A stretch of DNA of 64,000 bases from an uncultured bacterium (GCA_964410945.1 CAYPJE010000004.1:24240-88239); one strand, 5' to 3'. Shown: positions 31,050-62,986, counted from the first letter of the stretch. Numbers and translations: made by a program. The notes: a model not told the origin generated them from the letters alone.

Positions 31050-31133
31050 GCCCGGGTGGTGAAATTGGTAGACACGCTAGGTTCAGGGTCTAGTGATCGC
31101 GAGGTCGTGCTGGTTCAAGTCCAGTCCCGGGCA
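31050..31133 (+). tRNA. tRNA-Leu (anticodon CAG), class II with a long variable arm, no encoded CCA
   Basis: The cloverleaf was read by eye. The acceptor is GCCCGGG/CCCGGGC, the anticodon stem-loop is CTAGG-TTCAGGG-TCTAG, and the T-loop is GGTTCAAGTCC. Confidence 0.9.
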
Positions 31134-31284
31134 CAATTTTTCCTCTGATTTATATTTTATGGTTAAATATTCTTAATATCATCCTGCCATACTGCTCTGG
31201 AAGCAGTGTGTATAAAATTCATATGTTGATTTATTAATTCTGCTTAAGATTCCGGAATATTTACACCGAAAAACTGAGGCATAT

Positions 31285-52513: not shown

Positions 52514-53827
52514 CTACTCTTCGTATTTGGCCGGATTCTTGATTCGATCGATCTCGTATTCGGCTACCCGGCGCCATTGACTGTCATTTCGGGCTTTTTC
52601 CAGGGAGTTCAAGGCCCTGGTTTTATCACCTTTACCATTACAGTAATAGGCCACTCCCATTTCGATAAGAGCCGGTGCATAATTATTACGAACATCAACG
52701 GCTGTTTTGGCGGCGTCAAGGGCATTTTCGCAATCGCCCAGCTGATTGTAGGATTGTGAAAGATAATACCATCCATTCAATGACTTGGCATTGAAGGCTA
52801 CCGCCTGGGTCAGATACTGGACCGCATCTTCCCATTGTTCCAATTTGGTATATGTTAAACCGAGATTTTCATAGGCTTTAGCATAGGTTGGATCGACAGA
52901 GATTGCCAGCTGGAACCGATCGATGGCTTTTTCATATTCCTGCCGGTCGACATAGATCTCGCCCATGCTGGAATAAGACTTGGCATGGGTTGGATCGACA
53001 TTGACTGCATTCTGAAATGTCTCTAATGCCGCATCGATATCACCGATTTTTTTGTAGGCTAAACCCAGCCCAAATAAAACACGAGCAGAATTGGGCTGAA
53101 ACTCTAATGCTTTTTTATACAGTATGATGGCCTTATCCACATCTCCTAAACGACCCGAAATTACACCGATTTGATAATGGGCCTGGAAAAAGGTTGAATC
53201 ATACTCAAGCACTTTATAGTATGATTCCATGGCACCTTCCAAATCACCCATCTTATATAAACGATTACCATCGTTAAATTTATTCTTCACTACATTCTGG
53301 ATAGCGGAATGGGCATTAGCGAATTCTGGATTGATTGTCAGGGTCCGCTGAAAATCGGCAATGGCGCCATCGTAATCCTTACGACGCATATTGACCCCCC
53401 CCATGTTATAGGCTGCTTTGGCAAAATGCGGAAAATCAACCAGAACATTTTCAAAGGTGGCATAGGCATCATCGAGATCACCGCTGTTCATATACCGGAT
53501 TGCCTCACTCATCATGGAAAGCAGTTCGGTCACCTTTTCGTATTCGGCCCGATATTCTTCATTTTCCGGTTCGGTCTCAATTGCGGTTCGGAAAAATTCA
53601 CCGGCCTTTTCCATATCACCCGAGCGGATATAGACCTGAGCCAGAAGGAACAATGCAGGTGCGAACGTCGGATCAGCCTTAATGGCCTGGTCGAGCTGCT
53701 CCTGTGCTGCTGAAAATTGCTTGGCAGCTATGCTTGCTTCAGCAGAATTAAATAAATCCTGCGGTGATTGTGCGAATGAAAAGGATATTAATATCAGCGC
53801 AAAGATCAGTGTTCTTGCTGCGTTCAT
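52514..53827 (-). CDS. Secreted TPR-repeat protein
   Basis: The ATG at 53827 is preceded by AGGAGG and gives the signal peptide MNAARTLIFALILISFSFAQS, followed by 10 or more TPR units. The ORF-track extension to 53884 would run into the tRNA gene. Confidence 0.75.
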   Translation of the reverse strand: MNAARTLIFALILISFSFAQSPQDLFNSAEASIAAKQFSAAQEQLDQAIKADPTFAPALFLLAQVYIRSGDMEKAGEFFRTAIETEPENEEYRAEYEKVTELLSMMSEAIRYMNSGDLDDAYATFENVLVDFPHFAKAAYNMGGVNMRRKDYDGAIADFQRTLTINPEFANAHSAIQNVVKNKFNDGNRLYKMGDLEGAMESYYKVLEYDSTFFQAHYQIGVISGRLGDVDKAIILYKKALEFQPNSARVLFGLGLAYKKIGDIDAALETFQNAVNVDPTHAKSYSSMGEIYVDRQEYEKAIDRFQLAISVDPTYAKAYENLGLTYTKLEQWEDAVQYLTQAVAFNAKSLNGWYYLSQSYNQLGDCENALDAAKTAVDVRNNYAPALIEMGVAYYCNGKGDKTRALNSLEKARNDSQWRRVAEYEIDRIKNPAKYEE

Positions 53828-53843
53828 TGGGACCTCCTGTTTG

Positions 53844-53927
53844 TGCCGAAGGCGGGACTCGAACCCGCACGCCCGGATGAGCACTACCCCCTCAAGATAG
53901 CGTGTCTACCAGTTCCACCACTTCGGC
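53844..53927 (-). tRNA. tRNA-Leu (anticodon GAG), class II, no encoded CCA
   Basis: The minus-strand sequence is GCCGAAGTGGTGGAACTGGTAGACACGCTATCTTGAGGGGGTAGTG...GGGTTCGAGTCCCGCCTTCGGCA. The anticodon loop is TTGAGGG. Confidence 0.9.
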
Positions 53928-53936
53928 AATTTCCGG

Positions 53937-54278
53937 TTATTCCAGAATTAGTTGATCATCCTGCCCGGCGGGACGGGATAAATCTGAACCAGGTGAGATC
54001 ACCCGTTCTTCTGCTTCCTGCTTAATGATCGAGCGCGACTCAGCCATCCGTGTGGATGACAACAGGCTGATCAATACAGCCAGGGACATGAAGGCTACTG
54101 CCAGTCCAGTGGTGACCTTGCTCAGAAAAGAAGCCGCACCACGGCCTCCCAGAACCTGGTTAGTAATACCACCACCAATTGATCCTGCCAGACCGCCGCC
54201 CTGGCTGGCCTGCATCAAAATCACTGTAATCAACAATATTGAAACCAGGGTTTCAACAACTAATAAAAATCCGTACAC
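53937..54278 (-). CDS. secG: Preprotein translocase subunit SecG
   Basis: 113 aa. The N-terminus is MYGFLLVVETLVSILLITVILMQASQGGGLAG. Confidence 0.88.
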   Translation of the reverse strand: MYGFLLVVETLVSILLITVILMQASQGGGLAGSIGGGITNQVLGGRGAASFLSKVTTGLAVAFMSLAVLISLLSSTRMAESRSIIKQEAEERVISPGSDLSRPAGQDDQLILE

Positions 54279-54281
54279 GGG

Positions 54282-55058
54282 TTATTCCTCTTTATAATTT
54301 TCCTGCACTAATTGAGCTATCGATGTAAATGAGTCAACTTTAAGACTGGCGCCCCCAATCAAAAATCCATCTACACCCGGTGCCTGAATTAATTCTGCGG
54401 CATTGTCCGGTTTCACGGAACCGCCATATAAAATGGCTGTATTCCGGGCAACAGCATCGGTAAACAGATCGGATAATACCAGTCTGACAACCTGATGTGC
54501 CTCGCTGGCCTGATCGACACTGGCGGTAACGCCGGTACCAATCGCCCAAACCGGTTCATAGGCAACCACAATTCGATCCATCTCTTCGGCACTGACGTCA
54601 GCAAGACCAGCCACCAATTGATCGCGCAGTACTTTTTCTGTATCACCAGCCTGACGCTGCTCCAGAGTCTCACCGATACAAAGGATTGGCAGCATCTTTG
54701 AATTGAGCACGGCTTTGACCTTGGCATTGATCCATTCTTCCGGTTCATTAAAAACATGACGCCGTTCGGAATGACCGATAATGACATAGTCTACGCCACA
54801 GGCTTCCAGCATACTGATCGATATTTCACCAGTGAAAGCACCCTTGTCTTCATAATGACAATTCTGGGCAGCCAACGACAGCGATGGAACATTCAATAAA
54901 CTTTTTATGTTAAAGAGCGCCGTAAAAGGCGGGCTGAATATAATGTTCACCCCTTCTATATTCAAAAGTAATTTGCGACATTCTTCGACGAACGAATACC
55001 CCTCCTGCGGGGTCATATGCATTTTCCAGTTTCCTGCGACAATAGGTTTAGTAATCAT
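54282..55058 (-). CDS. tpiA: Triosephosphate isomerase
   Basis: 258 aa. Motifs AGNWKMH, IGHSERR, AYEPVWAIGTG and GGASLK are present. Confidence 0.96.
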   Translation of the reverse strand: MITKPIVAGNWKMHMTPQEGYSFVEECRKLLLNIEGVNIIFSPPFTALFNIKSLLNVPSLSLAAQNCHYEDKGAFTGEISISMLEACGVDYVIIGHSERRHVFNEPEEWINAKVKAVLNSKMLPILCIGETLEQRQAGDTEKVLRDQLVAGLADVSAEEMDRIVVAYEPVWAIGTGVTASVDQASEAHQVVRLVLSDLFTDAVARNTAILYGGSVKPDNAAELIQAPGVDGFLIGGASLKVDSFTSIAQLVQENYKEE

Positions 55059-56246
55059 TTAGCGCTCCAATACGGTTAAAGCCGGCAGTGATACACCACT
55101 CAGTAATTCCAGTGATGCACCTCCGCCTGTTGATACGTGAGACATTTTTTCCATTAAATTATAGCCTTTTACTGCTGCGGCCGAGTCACCTCCACCTACG
55201 ACAGATATCGCACCATTGTCGGTAGCATTGGCTAATTCTTCTGCCAGGGTTCTGGTTCCCTGATCAAAACCGGGAATCTCGAATACACCCATGGGACCAT
55301 TCCAGATAATCGTACTGGCCTTGTGAACGATATTCACGAAAGAAGTGGTTGTTTCCGGGCCAATATCCAATCCCATCTGGTCATCCGGTATTTTATCAAT
55401 TGAGAATACAGTTTTTTCCTCGTGGTCATCCAGTGAATTAGCACACAGAACGTCACTGGGAAAATGCAGGTTGATTTTTTTCTGATTGGCGTCGGCAATT
55501 ATTTTCTCAGCCGTCCTTAACATTGATTTATCAACCAGCGATCCACCCACATTTTTTCCCATGGCCTGTAAAAATGTAAAAGCCATTCCGCCACCGATGA
55601 TAATATCATCGGCCTCATCCAGGAAGCGGTTGATCAGGCTTAATTTCGAACCGACTTTGGCACCTCCCAGAATCACGACCAGCGGCCTGTTCGGCCTTTT
55701 GATCACATCGCTTAAAAACCTGACTTCCCGCTCGACCAGATTCCCGATGCCACGTTGCGCAAAATGAGCGGCAACGCCCACATTACTGGCATGGGCCCGG
55801 TGGGCAGTACCAAAAGCGTCATTAATATAAACGCTGCCATGCTTGGACAGCAAAGCTCCAAATTGTGATTCGTTGGAGGTTTCTTCCTTATGGAATCTCA
55901 GGTTTTCCAGCAGATGAACTTCCCCTGCACTTAGACCCAGCGATACATCCCGGGCGTCTTCGGAAACACAGTCATGGGAAAATTTGATGGACTTTTCCAG
56001 CAGATCAGCCAGTGTTTCACCAACCGGAACCAGGCTTAATTCAGGAATCACCTTCCCTTTGGGTCGACCCAGGTGGGACATCAGAACAACCGAAGCACCG
56101 GTATTCAGACAGTGCTGGATAGTCGGTAGCGCAGCCCTGATCCTGAAATCATCAGCCACAACACCATTTTTTAAAGGCACATTGAAATCAACACGGATTA
56201 AAACGCGTTTCCCTTTCAAGTCAAATGAATTTAAAGTATTTAACAT
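55059..56246 (-). CDS. pgk: Phosphoglycerate kinase
   Basis: 395 aa. Motifs RVDFNVP, SHLGRPKG and STGGGASLE are present. Confidence 0.97.
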   Translation of the reverse strand: MLNTLNSFDLKGKRVLIRVDFNVPLKNGVVADDFRIRAALPTIQHCLNTGASVVLMSHLGRPKGKVIPELSLVPVGETLADLLEKSIKFSHDCVSEDARDVSLGLSAGEVHLLENLRFHKEETSNESQFGALLSKHGSVYINDAFGTAHRAHASNVGVAAHFAQRGIGNLVEREVRFLSDVIKRPNRPLVVILGGAKVGSKLSLINRFLDEADDIIIGGGMAFTFLQAMGKNVGGSLVDKSMLRTAEKIIADANQKKINLHFPSDVLCANSLDDHEEKTVFSIDKIPDDQMGLDIGPETTTSFVNIVHKASTIIWNGPMGVFEIPGFDQGTRTLAEELANATDNGAISVVGGGDSAAAVKGYNLMEKMSHVSTGGGASLELLSGVSLPALTVLER

Positions 56247-56261
56247 AAGTAAACATCCTAT

Positions 56262-56966
56262 CTAATTATCAATTCTTGGAGTGCTGCAAGTAAAAGCCGT
56301 TATTAATTCAGCACCAGATTTACGCAGTGCAGTGGCACAGGCCGAAATGGTAGCTCCGGTCGTAAGAACATCATCAATTACGGCAATCCGGTCATAGTCC
56401 AAATTTTTTGAGGCCTTGAAAGCCTGCGACATATTTACAAAACGCTCATCACTTTTTAAAGTGGTTTGAGTTTTGGTTACTTTAATTCTTTTTAACAGGT
56501 CAAAATCATAGTGCAATCCGGTAACTTTACTGATACCACGGACGATCCATTCAGCCTGATTATAACCTCTTTCCCGTCTTTTCACAGGGTGCAGGGGAAC
56601 AGCCGTCAGAATCGACATCTGCGTAAACTCTTTTTCAAACAACCGGCCCAGTTCCGCGCCTAAAAGAACACCGAATTTAGCATAATCTGAATATTTAAGT
56701 GTATGAATAATATCCTGTAAAACGGCAGTGAAATACCAGCCCGAATAAGCTCCATCCAGATCGGTGTTATAGGTAATCCTGTCTATCCAGTTTCCCAATC
56801 CCGTTAACTCCAGGTTTGTCAGGCAGGCGTCGCAAATCACCTCCTGATCGGCTGTCATCTGGTCACCACAAGCCCGGCAGGTTCGCGGATATATTAAATC
56901 CAGAGAATAATTTATTAAATATTTTAACTTCAGATAATCCTTAACCAGCCTGTTATCGAATAGAAT
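56262..56966 (-). CDS. comF: ComF-family protein (amidophosphoribosyltransferase-like); the start codon is uncertain
   Basis: The PRTase motif is IAVIDDVLTTGATI. The first ATG is at 56858. The in-frame upstream codons, open back to the TAA at 56969-56967, encode ...LINYSLDLIYPRTCRACGDQ, the first CxxC of the zinc finger, and contain no ATG/GTG/TTG. Confidence 0.8.
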   Translation of the reverse strand: MLFDNRLVKDYLKLKYLINYSLDLIYPRTCRACGDQMTADQEVICDACLTNLELTGLGNWIDRITYNTDLDGAYSGWYFTAVLQDIIHTLKYSDYAKFGVLLGAELGRLFEKEFTQMSILTAVPLHPVKRRERGYNQAEWIVRGISKVTGLHYDFDLLKRIKVTKTQTTLKSDERFVNMSQAFKASKNLDYDRIAVIDDVLTTGATISACATALRKSGAELITAFTCSTPRIDN

Positions 56967-57046: not shown

Positions 57047-60000
57047 ATGCTAAAATATGATTCCACATCGAAGCCCAAGTTCAGATTTCAGGACCTCATG
57101 CTGCACCGGGTTTATGAAATCCTGCTCGTGGCCAGCCCATATGATGCTTATATCCTGGAAGAAGACGGCCAGTTAGCTGAACAGATCATAAACGAATACC
57201 TGGGGATGAATTTTACCGCCGCGCCCCGGCTATGGGTATCACCCACCGCCAGCGATGCGCTGGAATTTTTAACCAAACGCAAATTTGACCTGATCATTGT
57301 CATGTCGCGCATTTCGGACATGGATCCCATTACATTCAGTAAAAAAATCAAAGAACTATATCCCAAGAAACCAATCATTCTACTGGCAGCCGATGAGTCC
57401 GAATTAAATCAACTGCCGGCTTTCGACCTTCAATCCAGTAAACCGATCAACAAGGTCTTTATCTGGACCGGAAACGCCAACCTGTTCCCAACCATTATCA
57501 AATATTACGAAGACCGGAAAAATGTCAAGCGCGATGTTAAGCTGGGTGAAGTACGTATTATCATCGTAATTGAGGATACTCCACGCGATTATTCGGTCAT
57601 TCTGCCACTGATCTATAAAACCATTGTCGAATATACCAATCAGCTGATGTCTAAAAGCCTGAATGCAGGGCAGAGATTGCTGCATTTACGGGGCCGGCCA
57701 AAGATCATTCTCACCAGCAATTATGAAGAGGCTCAGAGGTACTACCGCAAATATAGATCAAACGTACTGGGAATTATCTCCGACATCAATTTCCCTAAGG
57801 ACGGGAAAAAGGATCCTCTGGCGGGAGTTAAATTCGCCAAATGGGTGCGTAAACAGGAATCGACAATGCCCATCATGCTACAATCCAGGAATCAGGATGT
57901 TCATGAACTGGCCGAGGAAATCAATGCACATTTCCTGTATAAAAAATCCACCCGCCTGCTGCGGGACATCCAGGAATTCGTGATTACAAATTTTGGGTTT
58001 GGCAATTTCATTTTCCGTTCGCCTGACGGAACACCTATTGCGATGGCAGCTAACCTGGATGAATTGATGCAAATCCTGGGCACCATCAACGATGAATCTT
58101 TCGCCTACCATTCCAGTTATAATCATTTTTCCAACTGGCTGTCGGCTCGCGGCGAATTCCTGGCTGCGTCAAAAATCCGACCTCTCAAGCAGGAAGACTT
58201 CGATACAATCGAAGAACACCGAAATGAAATCATCCGCTTTATTGAAGAAAGTCAGGTCAAACATCTTGACGAAGAACTGGTAGATTTTTCAGTTGATTCA
58301 TTCAATGCTTCAATCAATTTCACACGCTTCGCATCCGGATCGCTGGGTGGTAAGGCCCGGGGGCTGACCTTTGCTGGACAATTATTAGTTGATTCTGGGA
58401 TTCGTGGGAAATACCCGGAAATAACGATCCGAGTTCCCCAGGTGGCAATCATTGGAACCGATGAATTCGACCGCTTCATGAATGACAACCAGCTATGGGG
58501 ACCGGTTCTATCGGTTACCGATAATCAAGAAATAAACAGACTTTTTCTCGAAGCCCGGTTTTCAAATGAACTGATCAATCCGCTAAAAATCTATCTTTCT
58601 AAAATAAACTATCCCGTTGCAGTTCGTTCCTCAAGCCTGCTTGAGGACTCCCAGTACCAGCCTCTGGCAGGTCTGTACACCACTTATATGTACCCTAATA
58701 ATAATGAGTCACTGGACATTCGCGTGGCTGAATTATGCATTCTGATCAAACTTGTCTATGCGTCGATGTTCCATAAAGAACCCCGGGCTATCCTTACCAA
58801 CAGTACCCGTCGCCTGGAAGAAGAAAAAATGGCGGTAGTGATACAGGAATTAATCGGTCAGAAACATGCTGATTATTTCTATCCGACTTTCAGCGGGGTT
58901 TGCCAGAATTATAATTATTATCCGGTTTCCTATATGAAACGTGAAGAGGGTGCCGCCTTTCTCGCACTTGGCTTGGGGCGAACGGTAGTCGAAGGGGAAA
59001 AAGCTCTCCGGTTTTCGCCAAAATACCCGGCAATCCTACCTCAGTTTTATTCGGTCAGGGCAACGATTGCCTCCTCGCAGAATTCCTTCTATGCCCTGAA
59101 ATTAATCGAAAAACAGTATAAATCGGATTATTCCGAATTGATCGACCTGGAGAAGCTTCCCCTGTCGGTTGCTGAACAGGACGGTGTCCTGAAACATGTT
59201 GCCAGCGTGGTCTGTTCACAGGATTCGGTAATTCGCGATTCTTTGAGTTATGACGGAACCCGGGTAGTTACTTTTGCACCTATTCTCAAATGGCGGAAAA
59301 TTCAATTGGCTGAAATTCTGAATGAGATTCTGGATATTGGTCGCCATGCTTTGGGTGGCCCGGTCGAGATTGAGTTTGCCGTAAATATCTTCCCGGGCAC
59401 GAGCCGCAAACCGGAATTCTGCCTGCTGCAGATCCGCCCCATGCATTCATCCAATCTGAACACTGATATCGATCTGATCACAGCCGAATCCGAAGATATT
59501 GTTGCCCGCAGCCACATTACACTCGGGGATGGTACCATTGACAATATTTACAATATTGTTTTCATTGATAAGGATAGTTTTAATCCAGCCAAAAGCGAAG
59601 ATATCGCCCGTGAAATCGATACTTTCAACCAACGGCTGGGAAATCAAAGACCCTATATATTGATCGGTCCGGGACGCTGGGGATCGGCTGATCCATGGTT
59701 AGGTGTTCCGGTCCGCTGGGACCAGATCAGCAATGCTAAAGTGATAGTTGAGGTAGGGTTAGATAAGTATAATATTGATCCATCTTTCGGTAGTCATTTT
59801 TTCCAGATTGTAACAGGAATGAAAATCGCTTACTTCACGATCAACCCCAAAAATAAGGAAGACTCAATCAACTGGGATTGGCTTGCAGATAAAGAGCCTG
59901 TCGACAGTACCGAATTCATCCGTTGGATTCAGCTGGATCAACCAATTACCGTGCATGTTGACGGCATATCCGGAAAGGGCGTAATTAAAAAACCGGATGA

Positions 60001-60052
60001 AAACATAACCGATTTTGAACCAATGGATGAGCAGGAATCCACCGGGATCTGA
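57047..60052 (+). CDS. Large protein with a pseudo-receiver, a receiver and a PPDK/PEP-synthase-type ATP-grasp (PEP/pyruvate-binding) domain
   Basis: 1001 aa counted from the ATG at 57047. REC-like domain 1 contains ILLVASPYD and DLIIVMSRISD, where Met occupies the acceptor position. REC-like domain 2 contains IIIVIEDTP, LGIISDINFP, PIMLQS and FLYKK. The ATP-grasp motifs are SLGGKARGL and VAVRSSSLLEDSQYQPLAGLYTTY. I saw no GGxTSHAAI phosphohistidine motif. Confidence 0.8.
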   Translation: MLKYDSTSKPKFRFQDLMLHRVYEILLVASPYDAYILEEDGQLAEQIINEYLGMNFTAAPRLWVSPTASDALEFLTKRKFDLIIVMSRISDMDPITFSKKIKELYPKKPIILLAADESELNQLPAFDLQSSKPINKVFIWTGNANLFPTIIKYYEDRKNVKRDVKLGEVRIIIVIEDTPRDYSVILPLIYKTIVEYTNQLMSKSLNAGQRLLHLRGRPKIILTSNYEEAQRYYRKYRSNVLGIISDINFPKDGKKDPLAGVKFAKWVRKQESTMPIMLQSRNQDVHELAEEINAHFLYKKSTRLLRDIQEFVITNFGFGNFIFRSPDGTPIAMAANLDELMQILGTINDESFAYHSSYNHFSNWLSARGEFLAASKIRPLKQEDFDTIEEHRNEIIRFIEESQVKHLDEELVDFSVDSFNASINFTRFASGSLGGKARGLTFAGQLLVDSGIRGKYPEITIRVPQVAIIGTDEFDRFMNDNQLWGPVLSVTDNQEINRLFLEARFSNELINPLKIYLSKINYPVAVRSSSLLEDSQYQPLAGLYTTYMYPNNNESLDIRVAELCILIKLVYASMFHKEPRAILTNSTRRLEEEKMAVVIQELIGQKHADYFYPTFSGVCQNYNYYPVSYMKREEGAAFLALGLGRTVVEGEKALRFSPKYPAILPQFYSVRATIASSQNSFYALKLIEKQYKSDYSELIDLEKLPLSVAEQDGVLKHVASVVCSQDSVIRDSLSYDGTRVVTFAPILKWRKIQLAEILNEILDIGRHALGGPVEIEFAVNIFPGTSRKPEFCLLQIRPMHSSNLNTDIDLITAESEDIVARSHITLGDGTIDNIYNIVFIDKDSFNPAKSEDIAREIDTFNQRLGNQRPYILIGPGRWGSADPWLGVPVRWDQISNAKVIVEVGLDKYNIDPSFGSHFFQIVTGMKIAYFTINPKNKEDSINWDWLADKEPVDSTEFIRWIQLDQPITVHVDGISGKGVIKKPDENITDFEPMDEQESTGI

Positions 60053-60073: not shown

Positions 60074-60105
60074 AAAAAACGGGAGCAAATTGCTCCCGTT
60101 TTTTA
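60074..60105. terminator. Bidirectional rho-independent terminator between the convergent REC-PPDK_N gene and gdhA
   Basis: The sequence is AAAAAA-CGGGAGCA-aat-TGCTCCCG-TTTTTTA. The stem is a perfect 8 bp. Confidence 0.8.
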
Positions 60106-60120
60106 TTGATAAATGGTCTA

Positions 60121-61488
<1,368 letters not shown>

Positions 61489-61721: not shown

Positions 61722-61795
61722 GGCGGAGTAGCTCAGTTGGTTAGAGCAGCGGAATCATAATCCGCGTGTCGGGGGTTCGAGTCCCTCCTCCGCTA
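61722..61795 (+). tRNA. tRNA-Met (anticodon CAT), elongator-type; tRNA-Ile2 (lysidine) cannot be excluded
   Basis: The sequence is GGCGGAGTAGCTCAGTTGGTTAGAGCAGCGGAATCATAATCCGCGTGTCGGGGGTTCGAGTCCCTCCTCCGCTA. The anticodon stem lacks the three G:C pairs of initiator tRNA. No CCA is encoded. Confidence 0.88.
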
Positions 61796-61915
61796 CACTC
61801 TTCATGCAACAGGCTACTTAATCATCTTCCAACTAATTGGAATTTCGCATAGCAAACAATCCTGATAGCTTTTTTTACTTATTACTGATTACTCCTCACT
61901 CATAACCCAAAGAAT

Positions 61916-62986
61916 ATGAAAATCGGACTCACCGGACTTCCCAACTGCGGCAAAACTACAATCTTCAATGCTTTAACCGAATCAGATGTCCCGATCGGTT
62001 CATATGCGGACGGGAAAGCAGAACCGCTGCAGGCAATTATTAAAGTGCCGGATCAACGTATCGATGCCTTATCCGATCTCTACCAGCCAAAGAAAACAAC
62101 TTATGCCACCGTGGAATTGACTGATTTTCCAGCCACCCTTGATAAAACTGATGATTCCGCTGCCTTGAGTCCGAATACAATCCGACTGAGTAAAAACCTC
62201 GATGCCCTGGCCATTGTGATACGGAATTTTGAAGATGAACTGCTTGGTGCACCGGAACCACTCAATGATCTGTCGGCTATTTACAGTGAACTGCTGCTGT
62301 CAGACCTGTTACTGGTCGAGAACCGCCTGGAAAAGATCGCCTGGTCCCAGCAGAGAGGTTTGAAATCAGGAGAGATGGAAAATGAAGAAAAGATACTCCT
62401 GCATCTCAAAGACCAGTTGGATCAGGAATTACCCCTGTCTTCACTTGTAATATCAGCTGCTGACCAGAAGATCATCCGGGGATTTCAATTCCTGACTCAG
62501 AAACCGACAATCCTGGTATTAAACTCCGGGGAGGGCCGTTTCAATACCGAAGCCAGGCTGCTTGATCAGCTCAACGCTAATTACCCAACAATCGAATTCG
62601 CCGGTAAATTCGAAATGGAATTGATTCAATTCGATGACCTGGAAGAAAAGATGCTGTTCATGGATGATATGGGGATCAGTGCATCGGCCCGTGACCGCCT
62701 GGCCCGCACAGTCTATGACATCTTGGGATATATCAGTTTTTTCACCGTGGGCGAAGATGAAGTCCGGGCCTGGAATGTTAAAAACGATGCTACGGCTGTC
62801 GATGCCGCCGGCACCATTCACACCGATCTGGCCCGCGGATTCATCCGGGCCGAATGTTTCCATTATGACGATCTGATGACTGCCGGCAGTGAAGCCGGTG
62901 TGAAGAAAAGCGGCCGCTTCCGCCTGGAGGGGAAAACTTACCTGGTACAAGATGGAGATATACTCAGTATCCGCTTTAATGTCTAA
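61916..62986 (+). CDS. ychF: YchF/OLA1-family P-loop protein with divergent switch regions
   Basis: 356 aa. The P-loop is GLPNCGKTTIFNALT. The C-terminal TGS-like block is RAWNVKNDATAVDAAGTIHTDLARGFIRAE...LEGKTYLVQDGDILSIRFNV. The G3 position reads TDFPA instead of VDIAG. Confidence 0.8.
   Translation: MKIGLTGLPNCGKTTIFNALTESDVPIGSYADGKAEPLQAIIKVPDQRIDALSDLYQPKKTTYATVELTDFPATLDKTDDSAALSPNTIRLSKNLDALAIVIRNFEDELLGAPEPLNDLSAIYSELLLSDLLLVENRLEKIAWSQQRGLKSGEMENEEKILLHLKDQLDQELPLSSLVISAADQKIIRGFQFLTQKPTILVLNSGEGRFNTEARLLDQLNANYPTIEFAGKFEMELIQFDDLEEKMLFMDDMGISASARDRLARTVYDILGYISFFTVGEDEVRAWNVKNDATAVDAAGTIHTDLARGFIRAECFHYDDLMTAGSEAGVKKSGRFRLEGKTYLVQDGDILSIRFNV

Follow-up and report, generated by a model that had tools for sequence, protein, structure and literature searches.

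A widespread response-regulator family with a dikinase-type ATP-grasp domain and its recurrent genomic pairing with glutamate dehydrogenase

Introduction

ATP-grasp domains of the PPDK_N type are found in several described enzymes. PEP synthase (PpsA) and PPDK combine this module with a mobile His domain (PF00391) and a TIM barrel (PF02896). Rifampin phosphotransferase (RPH; PDB 5hv1/5hv2/5fbs) has a swivel domain of the canonical PEP-utilizers type, with GGxxSH, and in addition a large domain for rifampin binding. In split dikinases, such as HpeI (PDB 9goj) and the ATP-binding subunit of phenylphosphate synthase, a partner subunit with the His and substrate domains is encoded next door. PEP synthase-like phosphotransferases include PigC/RedH and B. 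subtilis YvkC. The relatives known to be characterised, namely rifampin phosphotransferase, HpeI, PEP synthase, PPDK and PigC, all have small-molecule substrates. As for signaling proteins of comparable layout, PleD-type regulators couple one phospho-accepting and one degenerate receiver to an enzymatic output, GGDEF in the case of PleD.

Glutamate dehydrogenase (GDH) is one of the two ammonium entry points into biomass. Little is understood of how bacteria regulate it rapidly, apart from a few model systems such as those of GarA/OdhI in actinobacteria and APRTh in Thermus, both acting on GDH. A reversible inactivation of GDH in Bacteroides was reportedly observed long ago and left unexplained. 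Signal-controlled switching of central-metabolic enzymes is also exemplified by GlnE, which acts on glutamine synthetase, and AceK, which acts on isocitrate dehydrogenase.

The 'REC-PPDK' architecture has already been listed in a census of response regulators (PMC5847659), and for aspartate-less receiver (ALR) domains an enrichment with effector domains of pyruvate phosphate dikinase has been reported (PMC4395418); neither report gives a function. No functional study of the family was found in the literature. Here, a member of this family is described from a 64,000-nucleotide stretch of DNA of an uncultured bacterium (GCA_964410945.1 CAYPJE010000004.1:24240-88239), hereafter the window. The reading that we prefer, at about even chances, is that of an orphan response regulator with an ATP-dependent phosphotransfer output, functionally tied to GDH; its chemistry and substrate are what we infer below.

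The gene and its family

The open reading frame (57041/57047 to 60052, plus strand) encodes 1001 aa when counted from the ATG at 57047. This start is supported by the homologue P0002 (79% identity, 100% coverage), which is also 1001 aa long. More than 6000 homologues were found by homology search. The family comprises 811 clusters (50% identity) at E<1e-30, with at least 598 matches in species genomes. It is thus large, spread over many bacterial phyla and not a one-off. The architecture, noted in a reading of the window from its sequence alone, is as such nothing out of the ordinary, the family being abundant and catalogued as 'REC-PPDK' (PMC5847659, PMC4395418). The PADLOC anti-phage defence models gave no match to the protein at E<=0.01.

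Pfam recognizes PPDK_N and two stretches of Response_reg in the whole protein (Table 1). The AF2 model of the full length has a mean pLDDT of 76.7, with the first 61 residues poorly modelled. The order of pseudo-receiver, receiver and PPDK-type ATP-grasp domain, proposed in the sequence-only reading, was borne out by profile searches and by structure search. Conservation is given below as counts in an alignment of 99 diverse family members with pairwise identities of at most 50%.

Table 1. Features of the REC-PPDK locus, in coordinates of the window
Feature	Position	Strand	Description	Evidence
ComF-like phosphoribosyltransferase gene	56262..56858	-	Divergent	TIGR00201 E 5e-24, below cutoff
Response-regulator ATP-grasp gene	57047..60052	+	Complete, 1001 aa; REC(pseudo)-REC-DUF5752-like-PPDK_N ATP-grasp-C-terminal His domain	ORF list, Pfam, homologues, AF2
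REC1	57149..57541	+	~aa 35-165; aspartate-less pseudo-receiver	Pfam Response_reg E 1.9e-6, aa 40-136 (sub-sequence)
REC2	57548..58000	+	~aa 168-318; receiver with complete acceptor set	REC2 profile against PDB, conservation
DUF5752-like domain	58004..58291	+	~aa 320-415; helical linker domain	Pfam DUF5752, conservation
PPDK/PEPS-type ATP-grasp domain	58340..59458	+	aa 432-804; nucleotide-binding	Pfam PPDK_N, hhalign, Foldseek
Linker, ATP-grasp to C-terminal domain	59450..59497	+	aa 802-817; variable, low confidence	pLDDT <50 at aa 802-809; variable alignment columns
C-terminal domain	59498..60001	+	aa 818-985; family-specific	Conservation, AF2
Intrinsic terminator	60074..60104	.	Bidirectional, AAAAAACGGGAGCAAATTGCTCCCGTTTTTT; common to the REC-PPDK gene and convergent gdhA	
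gdhA, NADP-specific glutamate dehydrogenase	60121..61458	-	445 aa	NCBIfam PRK09414 765 bits (cutoff 536); Pfam ELFV_dehydrog_N and ELFV_dehydrog

The ATP-grasp domain and the linker domain preceding it

With 117.7 bits (cutoff 27, E 8.7e-34), the match to PPDK_N (PF01326) covers profile positions 3-314 of 328. The alignment of the family to a PEP synthase MSA by hhalign (probability 99.6%, E 1.3e-24) spans the whole ATP-grasp domain, and the top Foldseek matches were rifampin phosphotransferase 5hv2 (E 4e-10), HpeI 9goj and PPDK 1kbl. The PPDK/PEP synthase motifs noticed earlier in the sequence are therefore strongly backed by profiles as well as by structure matches. The catalytic set consists of G434-G435-K436, R527-S528-S529, E533-D534, E776, Q795 and R797, all aligned with their PpsA counterparts. 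GGK, RSS, ED, E776 and Q795 are 100% conserved among the 99 sequences and R797 is 97% conserved. Judged by these residues, the ATP-grasp domain looks catalytically intact. It also carries family-specific insertions.

The closest relative, by profile (hmmsearch E 4e-12 to 2e-11) as well as by structure, is rifampin phosphotransferase. Both proteins have a PPDK_N-type ATP-grasp domain and a C-terminal domain after the nucleotide-binding module. However, neither the swivel domain nor the rifampin-binding domain is detectable in the 1001-aa protein, and RPH has no receiver domains, whereas the latter has two. With PpsA and PPDK, the protein shares the GGK, RSS-ED, E and Q-x-R catalytic positions. 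It differs from them in its additional 320-aa tandem-receiver N-terminus and DUF5752-like domain, and in lacking both the mobile His domain and the TIM barrel. HpeI, among the top matches in structure and in sequence, is an ATP-grasp module too and itself carries no His domain. Unlike in split dikinases, no counterpart of the partner-subunit gene is conserved beside REC-PPDK genes; GDH alone is conserved there.

Models of complete enzymes were rejected. The NCBIfam PEP synthase models scored 15-36 bits against cutoffs of 598-883. PigC (37.8 bits, cutoff 1300), RedH (24.1, cutoff 1350) and RPH (13.3, cutoff 999) matched in the N-terminal ATP-grasp region alone.

Upstream of the ATP-grasp domain, the isolated stretch of aa 321-451 weakly matches DUF5752 (PF19027), with 25.6 bits against a cutoff of 23 (aa 336-404, profile positions 22-104 of 208), and the full protein scores 18.7 bits against the same cutoff. 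The DUF5752-like domain carries the motif 'NFGFG...YHxxxNHFSNW', in which W364 is 98% conserved.

The C-terminal domain

The last part of the protein had been described as unfamiliar in the sequence-only reading, and it remains so: the C-terminal 217 aa hit no Pfam family even at E<=10, and the domain has no match in Pfam, PDB sequences or Foldseek. A Foldseek search against PDB, which holds PPDK structures, returned nothing better than E 0.07, with PPDK, EI and RPH absent among the matches. A scan at E<=10 detected PF00391 (PEP-utilizers, GGxTSHAAI) neither in the whole protein nor in 36 diverse C-terminal domains of the family, E. coli PpsA serving as positive control (E 1e-29). Comparison of the domain with a 94-sequence PEP-utilizers alignment by hhalign gave a probability of 0.09%. 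PF02896 (PEP-utilizers_C, the PEP/pyruvate TIM barrel), which the earlier reading had not found either, was likewise undetected in the protein and in these 36 domains, and the protein ends about 200 aa past the ATP-grasp domain. A complete dikinase (PEP synthase/PPDK) was rejected since PF00391 and PF02896 are both absent.

Nevertheless, the earlier statement that the protein has no phosphohistidine domain is true of the canonical PF00391 and too strong beyond it. In the hhalign alignment to PEP synthase, the first hairpin of the C-terminal domain runs co-linearly with the beginning of the swivel domain of PpsA. Moreover, R877, E902, S913, G915 and H917 (59795-59797) are kept in 99/99 sequences. 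The AF2 model of the isolated domain (pLDDT 89) places H917 at a helix N-terminus, after Gly-Ser/Thr. Further motifs are the 'LGDG..I.NIV' hairpin, 'GPGRWGSADPWLGVPV', 'VIVE', 'DPSFGSHFFQ' and 'VDGxxGxGVI'. The conservation and placement of the domain resemble those of a His carrier: as in PEP synthase, it is joined to the ATP-grasp domain by a variable linker. For the domain as a whole, the tests for homology to the swivel domain were negative; an alternative register sets 'GPGRWGSS..LGIPV' on 'GGRTCHAAI..LGIPAV', in which case the catalytic His would have been lost. His917 is put forward tentatively as a possible phospho-carrier. What is defined here is a 170-aa domain, as yet unclassified, whose Arg/Glu/Ser/His set is invariant.

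The absence of a canonical His domain would also suit a non-covalent regulator or sensor, whose ATP-grasp domain senses the ATP/AMP energy charge and whose phospho-REC2 form binds GDH or another partner allosterically, without phosphotransfer. The conserved adjacency to GDH described below fits a binding partner equally well, and adaptor response regulators exist, for instance RssB, which is among the weak REC matches. However, E776, Q795, the ED pair and the C-terminal His/Arg/Glu/Ser set are 100% conserved, and nucleotide binding usually requires less, which makes this explanation quite unlikely.

The receiver domains

Response_reg (PF00072) scores 39.4 bits over the two stretches of the whole protein, against a cutoff of 30.2; taken alone, REC1 (28.4 bits) and REC2 (18.4 bits) both stay under it. 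The REC2 sub-sequence matches at ~aa 209-294 (E 2.6e-3).

In REC1, Met86 (57302-57304) aligns with the acceptor Asp of PmrA. Asp occupies this position in 0/99 family members (Met in 53, Thr in 17, Phe in 7, and others), in agreement with the sequence-only reading. The same reading had considered the acidic pocket lost too, with beta-1 at 'ILLVASPYD'. The PmrA alignment instead places 'YILEEDG' (E38-D40) there, so that only the loss of the acceptor Asp is established. The pair E155/D156 (57509-57514), kept in 99/99 sequences, sits in the helix leading into REC2.

The REC2 profile finds the response regulator 3hdv in PDB (E 0.0045), with D246 (57782-57784) aligned to its acceptor Asp and S280 to its Thr/Ser residue. 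E176 (92 of the 99 sequences), D177 (86), D246 (90), S280 (91) and K299 (92) uphold the phospho-acceptor geometry proposed earlier for this domain. REC2 looks like a working receiver by its residues, with a long insertion in alpha-1 and another of 6 residues after the acceptor Asp. With acceptor residues at about 90% and ATP-grasp catalytic residues at 97-100% conservation, the description of the protein as a phosphorylation-controlled ATP-utilising enzyme was a reasonable one. Foldseek matches to PleD are consistent with a tandem-REC arrangement. One phospho-accepting and one degenerate receiver precede an enzymatic output in both, but the order of the receivers is reversed, the degenerate one coming first here, and the output is an ATP-grasp domain in place of GGDEF.

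Some family members without REC domains still keep the core, DUF5752-like domain included. REC is therefore regarded as an input and not as a substrate, and the core as having a REC-independent function. This weighs against a self-contained phosphorelay, in which the ATP-grasp and His917 domains would act as a non-canonical histidine kinase for Asp246 in REC2 of the protein itself, either in cis or between the subunits of a dimer, and phospho-REC would then act on GDH or another target. Such a relay would suit an orphan gene (by a crude search for G1/G2-box motifs, 1/83 loci has a candidate histidine kinase near the family gene), as well as the presence of an invariant His and a conserved acceptor Asp in one polypeptide. 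PTS enzyme I is a precedent for transfer from a phosphohistidine domain to a protein. Orphan response regulators with distant kinases are common, however, and with the complete core kept in REC-less members the relay appears very improbable.

Genomic pairing with glutamate dehydrogenase

The sequence-only reading placed the gene between a divergent comF gene and a bidirectional terminator. Both were seen, the terminator being absent from the list of a consensus terminator scan; the ComF-like gene merely provides context and does not recur alongside the family, and in two related Marinimicrobia loci its upstream place is taken by pgk or an SSF-family gene. That description stopped short of gdhA, just past the terminator, and so of the conserved pairing: GDH, the one widely conserved neighbour of the family, lies within ~6 kb of the REC-PPDK gene in 50/83 loci examined (~60%). 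In a well-flanked subset (58 loci whose flanks reach 2 kb or more on each side), 38 have GDH, 33 of them within 700 bp, and 20 do not. GDH is upstream on the same strand in 32 cases, downstream on the same strand in 14, convergent in 10 and divergent in 3. In some lineages the two genes are 12-22 bp apart, which suggests that they are co-transcribed. In the window, the two genes are not co-transcribed, as they are convergent with a terminator between them. Two GDH copies flank the family gene in 5 loci, and in L027, the locus checked, they belong to different GDH classes. The GDH-bearing loci come from ~13 phylum-level lineages: Marinimicrobia, Ignavibacteria/Bacteroidota, Acidobacteriota, Desulfobacterales, Eisenbacteria, Calditrichia, Gemmatimonadota, Planctomycetota, Bdellovibrionota, Zixibacteria, Thermoleophilia, Krumholzibacteriia and Fibrobacteraceae. 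The REC-PPDK-GDH link is strong.

The adjacency could still be functionally meaningless, reflecting inherited synteny or the co-location of highly expressed central-metabolism genes, with the target of the enzyme unrelated. In Marinimicrobia, the family gene also adjoins pgk-tpiA-secG, which looks like plain synteny. The well-flanked loci devoid of GDH and the convergent arrangement in the window point the same way. Yet the pairing recurs across these lineages in four relative orientations, sometimes with two GDH copies, while all other neighbours change (the second-commonest cluster after GDH occurs in 6/83 loci). This pattern is expected from selection for linkage, and a meaningless adjacency is considered improbable. 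With GDH adjoining in ~60% of loci, the protein becomes a candidate, previously unrecognised regulator of GDH. Gene adjacency alone does not show GDH to be the substrate.

The remaining neighbours bear on another explanation, a small-molecule dikinase or phosphotransferase of glutamate/2-oxoglutarate-linked metabolism with its substrate site in the DUF5752-like or the C-terminal domain. The role of the REC domains would be limited to tuning flux, and GDH, itself unmodified, would either provide the substrate or use it up. In 5 further loci, a GltD-like glutamate synthase subunit lies near the family gene (assigned by eye from one member's sequence), and an amino-acid decarboxylase-like protein, NadE and an SNF-type transporter were assigned by reading sequences; these neighbours are glutamate/nitrogen-related. 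The small-molecule enzymes among the matches (rifampin phosphotransferase, HpeI, PEP synthase, PPDK, PigC) favour this explanation too, and the ATP-grasp insertions and unclassified domains could form a substrate pocket. However, there is no recognisable substrate-binding domain, the PEP/pyruvate TIM barrel is absent, and two receivers, encoded by an orphan gene outside any operon, are rather what is expected of a regulator. To our knowledge, no phosphorylated metabolite adjoins the GDH reaction. This explanation is therefore judged unlikely.

Proposed function

In the preferred reading, that of an orphan response regulator tied to GDH, an unlinked histidine kinase or a small phosphodonor would phosphorylate D246 of REC2. 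The aspartate-less REC1 may serve as an adaptor or dimerisation module, by analogy with the second receiver of PleD. Phosphorylation of D246 would free the catalytic core, made up of the DUF5752-like, ATP-grasp and C-terminal domains. The ATP-grasp domain would bind MgATP and, in a dikinase-like manner, phosphorylate the invariant His917 on the tethered C-terminal domain. The phosphoryl group would then pass to the target, most likely NADP-GDH itself or else a metabolite of the glutamate/2-oxoglutarate node. Modification of NADP-GDH would amount to covalent control over ammonium assimilation versus glutamate catabolism. That GDH is the direct substrate is, on its own, rather unlikely.

GlnE, AceK, GarA/OdhI, APRTh and EI-Ntr, which regulate central nitrogen and carbon enzymes covalently or as partner proteins, have no sequence or domain relationship with the REC-PPDK protein, and the analogy is functional only. 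What they have in common with it is the concept, namely that a protein under signal control switches a central-metabolic enzyme whose gene lies close by.

Conclusion

The family would show the ATP-grasp domain of PEP synthase/PPDK rebuilt to serve as the output of a response regulator, with neither of the canonical domains (swivel-His and PEP) retained. In its furthest-reaching and rather unlikely form, the proposal makes the family an unrecognised post-translational GDH switch, two-component-controlled and dikinase-derived, whose new kind of His-carrier domain would phosphorylate NADP-GDH or modify it in another way and set the balance between assimilation and catabolism in at least a dozen phyla, the abundant Marinimicrobia of the ocean among them. 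If the GDH link were merely syntenic, the finding would reduce to an abundant 'PEP/pyruvate-binding domain-containing' response regulator.

The carriers include dominant lineages of soils (Acidobacteriota), of sediments (Ignavibacteria, Desulfobacterales) and of the dark ocean (Marinimicrobia). A widespread, signal-gated and predicted ATP-utilising protein encoded beside gdhA is a concrete candidate for the control of GDH.

Domain architecture of the 1001-aa protein

The open reading frame of the 1001-aa protein is real and lies where the sequence-only reading had placed it. The domains described there, a pseudo-receiver and a receiver followed by an ATP-grasp of the pyruvate phosphate dikinase (PPDK) type, are largely borne out by Pfam, profile and structure searches. 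Pfam detects both PPDK_N and Response_reg, the latter with 39.4 bits over two stretches. NCBIfam holds no model for the whole protein; its PigC, PEP synthase and rifampin phosphotransferase models reach 13-38 bits against cutoffs of ~600-1350 and match the first half of the ATP-grasp only. With PF00391 and PF02896 absent and NCBIfam scores this far under cutoff, a conventional dikinase was rejected. PADLOC defence models gave zero matches to the protein, so that a defence system was rejected.

Features of the window and domains of the 1001-aa protein (aa, residues of that protein)
Feature	Position	Strand	Basis or remark
1001-aa protein gene	57041/57047..60052	+	ORF list; 1001 aa counted from ATG at 57047
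REC1 (first receiver)	aa 40-136		Pfam on sub-sequence, E 1.9e-6
REC2 (second receiver)	~aa 209-294		Pfam on sub-sequence, E 2.6e-3
DUF5752 match, marginal	aa 336-404		Pfam on sub-sequence
PPDK_N	aa 432-804		Pfam, E 8.7e-34
ComF-like gene, divergent, upstream of the 1001-aa protein gene		-	
Terminator	60074-60104		Visible in sequence
gdhA, NADP-specific glutamate dehydrogenase, 445 aa	60121-61458	-	NCBIfam PRK09414, 765 bits vs cutoff 536
tRNA-Met(CAT)	61722-61796	+	Between gdhA and ORF 61916-62986
tRNA-Leu(GAG)	53843-53927	-	
tRNA-Leu(CAG)	31050-31134	+	

The two receivers differ in their acceptor sites. The phmmer alignment of REC1 with PmrA sets 'FDLIIVMSRISDMDP' opposite 'FDLILLDLELPMMDG', with Met86 at the acceptor position. 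Among 99 family sequences, at most ~50% identical to each other, this position is occupied by M, T, F, S, L or V and by Asp in 0/99; REC1 is therefore, by sequence, an aspartate-less receiver family-wide. PPDK is an effector class enriched for such receivers (PMC4395418). The acceptor loss claimed for REC1 in the sequence-only reading thus stands, but the accompanying loss of the acidic pocket is not secure, since the PmrA alignment sets beta-1 and the acidic pair at 'YILEEDG' and not at 'ILLVASPYD'. The stretch aa 1-61 (window 57047-57229), which includes 'LLVASPYD', has a pLDDT <50 in the AF2 model; this motif is among the better conserved ones of the N-terminus (L26 95%, Y32 96%, D33 90%).

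REC2 is too divergent for single-sequence searches. A profile of 23 sequences matches solved receivers (3hdv, E 0.0045), with D246 at the acceptor Asp and S280 at the Thr/Ser position, in line with the plausible phospho-acceptor geometry proposed earlier. The acceptor set is conserved in most of the 99 family sequences (E176 in 92, D177 in 86, D246 in 90, S280 in 91, K299 in 92). The pair E155-D156 (window 57509-57514; 'YYEDRKNVKRD'), on the helix that connects the two receivers, is present in 99/99 diverse members and is thus more strictly kept than the REC2 acceptor Asp, with no apparent role. In Foldseek searches, the N-terminal third of the predicted model matches PleD, likewise a tandem-receiver protein.

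The assignment of the ATP-grasp to the PPDK/PEP synthase type holds, both by the PPDK_N match and by a profile of 40 diverse cores, which aligns with PEP synthases at 99.6% probability (E 1.3e-24; aa 411-838 on PpsA 10-377). The nearest solved relatives are rifampin phosphotransferase (E ~1e-11), HpeI and PEP synthases by sequence profile, and rifampin phosphotransferase 5hv2 (E 4e-10), HpeI 9goj and PPDK 1kbl by structure (Foldseek). A small-molecule dikinase is a rival explanation. The residues G434-G435-K436, R527-S528-S529, E533-D534, E776 and Q795 are 100% conserved in the 99 sequences, and R797 is kept in 97%. Such conservation of catalytic residues favours a nucleotide site capable of catalysis; a rival explanation is an adaptor that senses ATP non-covalently.

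Distribution of the family

Homologues of the 1001-aa protein are numerous, with >6000 matches in a search space of 5.8 billion proteins. The closest are MAG proteins of Marinimicrobia / Neomarinimicrobiota / Fidelibacterota (e.g., MFH1851814.1, RMZ50057.1), annotated as 'PEP/pyruvate-binding domain-containing protein' or as 'CheY-like chemotaxis protein', and in some cases wrongly as 'histidine kinase'. A homologue search from an Ignavibacteria member returned MAG proteins only, cultured organisms being absent. An exhaustive search with aa 321-1001 gave 811 clusters (50% identity) with E<1e-30. In the best 150 of these, most proteins are ~1000 aa long and a few exceed 1100 aa, while some of 710-790 aa lack receivers and others of ~550-620 aa are the core only, or fragments. 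The length variants scanned with Pfam retain PPDK_N, and most have a DUF5752 match; informative sensor domains were not found in the longer ones. Three homologues of 1520-1650 aa (P0156, P0163, P0202) each align with the core query over two stretches; of these, P0156 was scanned with Pfam, which gave PPDK_N in two stretches, with receiver and PEP-utilizers domains absent.

In GTDB contigs, with one genome per species, at least 598 family matches were confirmed. The best 80 of them already span many bacterial lineages, namely Marinimicrobia, Ignavibacteria/Bacteroidota, Acidobacteriota, Desulfobacterales, Eisenbacteria, Calditrichia, Gemmatimonadota, Planctomycetota, Bdellovibrionota, Zixibacteria, Thermoleophilia, Krumholzibacteriia, Fibrobacteraceae and Clostridia, together with one Thermoplasmatota MAG. 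The copy in this MAG (contig JBLIRH010000001.1) is full-length and of bacterial type (42% identity), has no glutamate dehydrogenase (GDH) gene nearby, and could reflect horizontal transfer or a binning artefact. The REC-PPDK architecture itself is not new; Heimdallarchaeota proteins of this kind have been listed (PMC5847659). The literature search turned up census mentions only, and no paper on DUF5752, on a link with GDH or on what REC-PPDK proteins do.

Pairing with glutamate dehydrogenase

In the window, the family gene and gdhA converge. The sequence-only reading had also described the immediate surroundings correctly, with a terminator 3' of the family gene and a divergent comF gene, ComF-like in our analysis, upstream of it. 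In two further Marinimicrobia contexts (52-54% identity), the convergent GDH gene is kept and the upstream genes differ. Upstream of the family gene, window 52514-56246(-) carries pgk, tpiA, secG and TPR-protein genes, as does a Marinimicrobia contig (locus L003); in the window, the ComF-like gene additionally separates pgk from the family gene. Beyond gdhA, ORF 61916-62986 looks by eye like a YchF-type GTPase. Rfam scans of the family-gene flanks returned tRNAs only, with no riboswitch or other RNA family, and no sigma-54-type promoter was found in the relevant intergenic regions.

The pairing was surveyed at 83 loci (80 from genomes, two from metagenomes, and the window), in which ORFs were called and neighbours clustered by BLASTP. 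The sole widespread neighbour cluster besides the family itself is GDH, found at 50/83 loci; the next largest occurs at 6/83. Compared with the window GDH, all 59 members of the GDH cluster give a match, the weakest at E 7e-17, and the eight sampled all contain ELFV_dehydrog_N and ELFV_dehydrog. The arrangement varies: the GDH gene lies upstream on the same strand in 32 cases, downstream on the same strand in 14, convergent in 10 and divergent in three. The two genes are often 77-300 bp apart, and as close as 12-22 bp in certain loci of Acidobacteriota and Desulfobacterales. Both flanks extend for >=2 kb in 58 loci, of which 38 contain a GDH, in 33 of them <=700 bp away. No alternative conserved partner was found at loci lacking GDH, and a crude motif test for a cognate kinase gave a candidate histidine kinase nearby in only 1/83 loci.

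GDH synteny might carry no meaning. Nonetheless, the adjacency outlasts repeated rearrangement in ~13 phylum-level lineages, with all other neighbours changing, which is the signature of a functional link. In five loci of Ignavibacteria, Melioribacter and Calditrichaceae (L019, L027, L044, L053, L057), a GDH gene flanks the family gene on each side, on the same strand. The pair in L027 belongs to different classes, with a GdhA-type enzyme of ~453 aa upstream and one of another class (~415 aa) downstream, and such loci hint that an anabolic/catabolic pair of GDHs is being controlled. Moreover, a neighbour of ~467 aa, labelled by eye from one member's sequence as a GltD-like glutamate synthase small subunit, is encoded within a few kb in five loci, mostly from Acidobacteriota (L038, L043, L051, L069, L081).

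The C-terminal domain

The C-terminal ~200 aa, called unfamiliar in the sequence-only reading, have no detectable relative. The last 217 residues gave zero Pfam matches even at E<=10, Pfam scans of this domain in 36 family members were equally empty, and its profile found chance matches only among PDB sequences (hmmsearch). The isolated domain is confidently modelled (pLDDT 89), and Foldseek searches with this model in PDB and BFVD yielded no match with E <0.07. Yet, with the exception of the ATP site, no other part of the protein is conserved as sharply as this domain: R877, E902, S913, G915 and H917 are present in 99/99 family sequences, and N861, G876 and G879 in almost as many. In the predicted model, His917 lies at a helix N-terminus, after Gly-Ser/Thr. 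The linker from the ATP-grasp is variable and of low confidence. At the extreme C-terminus, the tail 'MDEQESTGI' (aa 993-1001, window 60023-60049) has M993, E995, G1000 and I1001 invariant across 38 close homologues, most of them from Marinimicrobia MAGs; it also occurs in one more distant representative, is missing from the remaining diverse members, and may be a docking peptide specific to one clade.

In where it lies, in its helix-N-terminal His and in a terminal 'VDGxxGxGVI' hairpin, the C-terminal domain is reminiscent of the swivel domain of PEP-utilizers. The PEP synthase alignment runs past the end of the ATP-grasp ('LQIRP' vs 'VQARP') into the first PpsA swivel hairpin, where 'IVARSHITLGDGTIDNIYNIV' pairs with 'IIAEGRAIGHRIGAGPVKVI' of PpsA. 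This first hairpin, at the trailing end of the alignment of the ATP-grasp, is the only part for which the likeness is supported. Five motifs could be aligned by eye with a divergent swivel domain, but this candidate was rejected, every test having failed. Probabilities in hhalign were at most 1.3% against single PpsA and PtsI domains and 0.09% against a 94-sequence PEP-utilizers alignment, and global hhalign against PEP-utilizers aligned three columns only. Low-stringency local hhalign chose another register ('GPGRWGSS..LGIPV' on 'GGRTCHAAI..LGIPAV'), in which the catalytic His would be lost. The PEP-utilizers sequences had been gathered from IMG/VR by a DNA pattern for GGxT[S/C]HAAIxAR; it matches 118 stretches (loci L087-L166 and further loci), many of which lie on contigs binned as giant-virus MAGs (GVMAG), and in 108 cases the reading frame is that of a PEP synthase-like ORF. 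By Pfam, hhalign and Foldseek, a canonical phosphohistidine domain is absent, as the sequence-only reading had stated; a derived one is possible, though unproven.

Proposed role

What has been observed of the 1001-aa protein is its set of parts and its gene linkage. It is best read as an orphan response regulator with REC2 as input, REC1 as adaptor and, as output, a PPDK/PEPS-derived ATP-utilising core, which is retained in REC-less relatives; its biological role is best read as concerning GDH. The reaction chemistry, the substrate and the part played by His917 are inferred by analogy. As in dikinases and PTS enzyme I, His917 would be phosphorylated at the expense of ATP, and the phosphoryl group would then pass either to GDH or to a metabolite linked with glutamate/2-oxoglutarate. 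In PTS enzyme I, the His domain donates to a protein. A self-contained His-to-Asp relay, from the invariant His917 to the acceptor Asp of REC2, is a rival explanation.

As far as can be told, the strong and phylogenetically broad pairing of the family with gdhA is new, and so is the definition of an unclassified C-terminal domain with an invariant His. The 1001-aa protein is a dikinase-derived response-regulator output, and it yields a directly testable hypothesis on the regulation of a central nitrogen enzyme.
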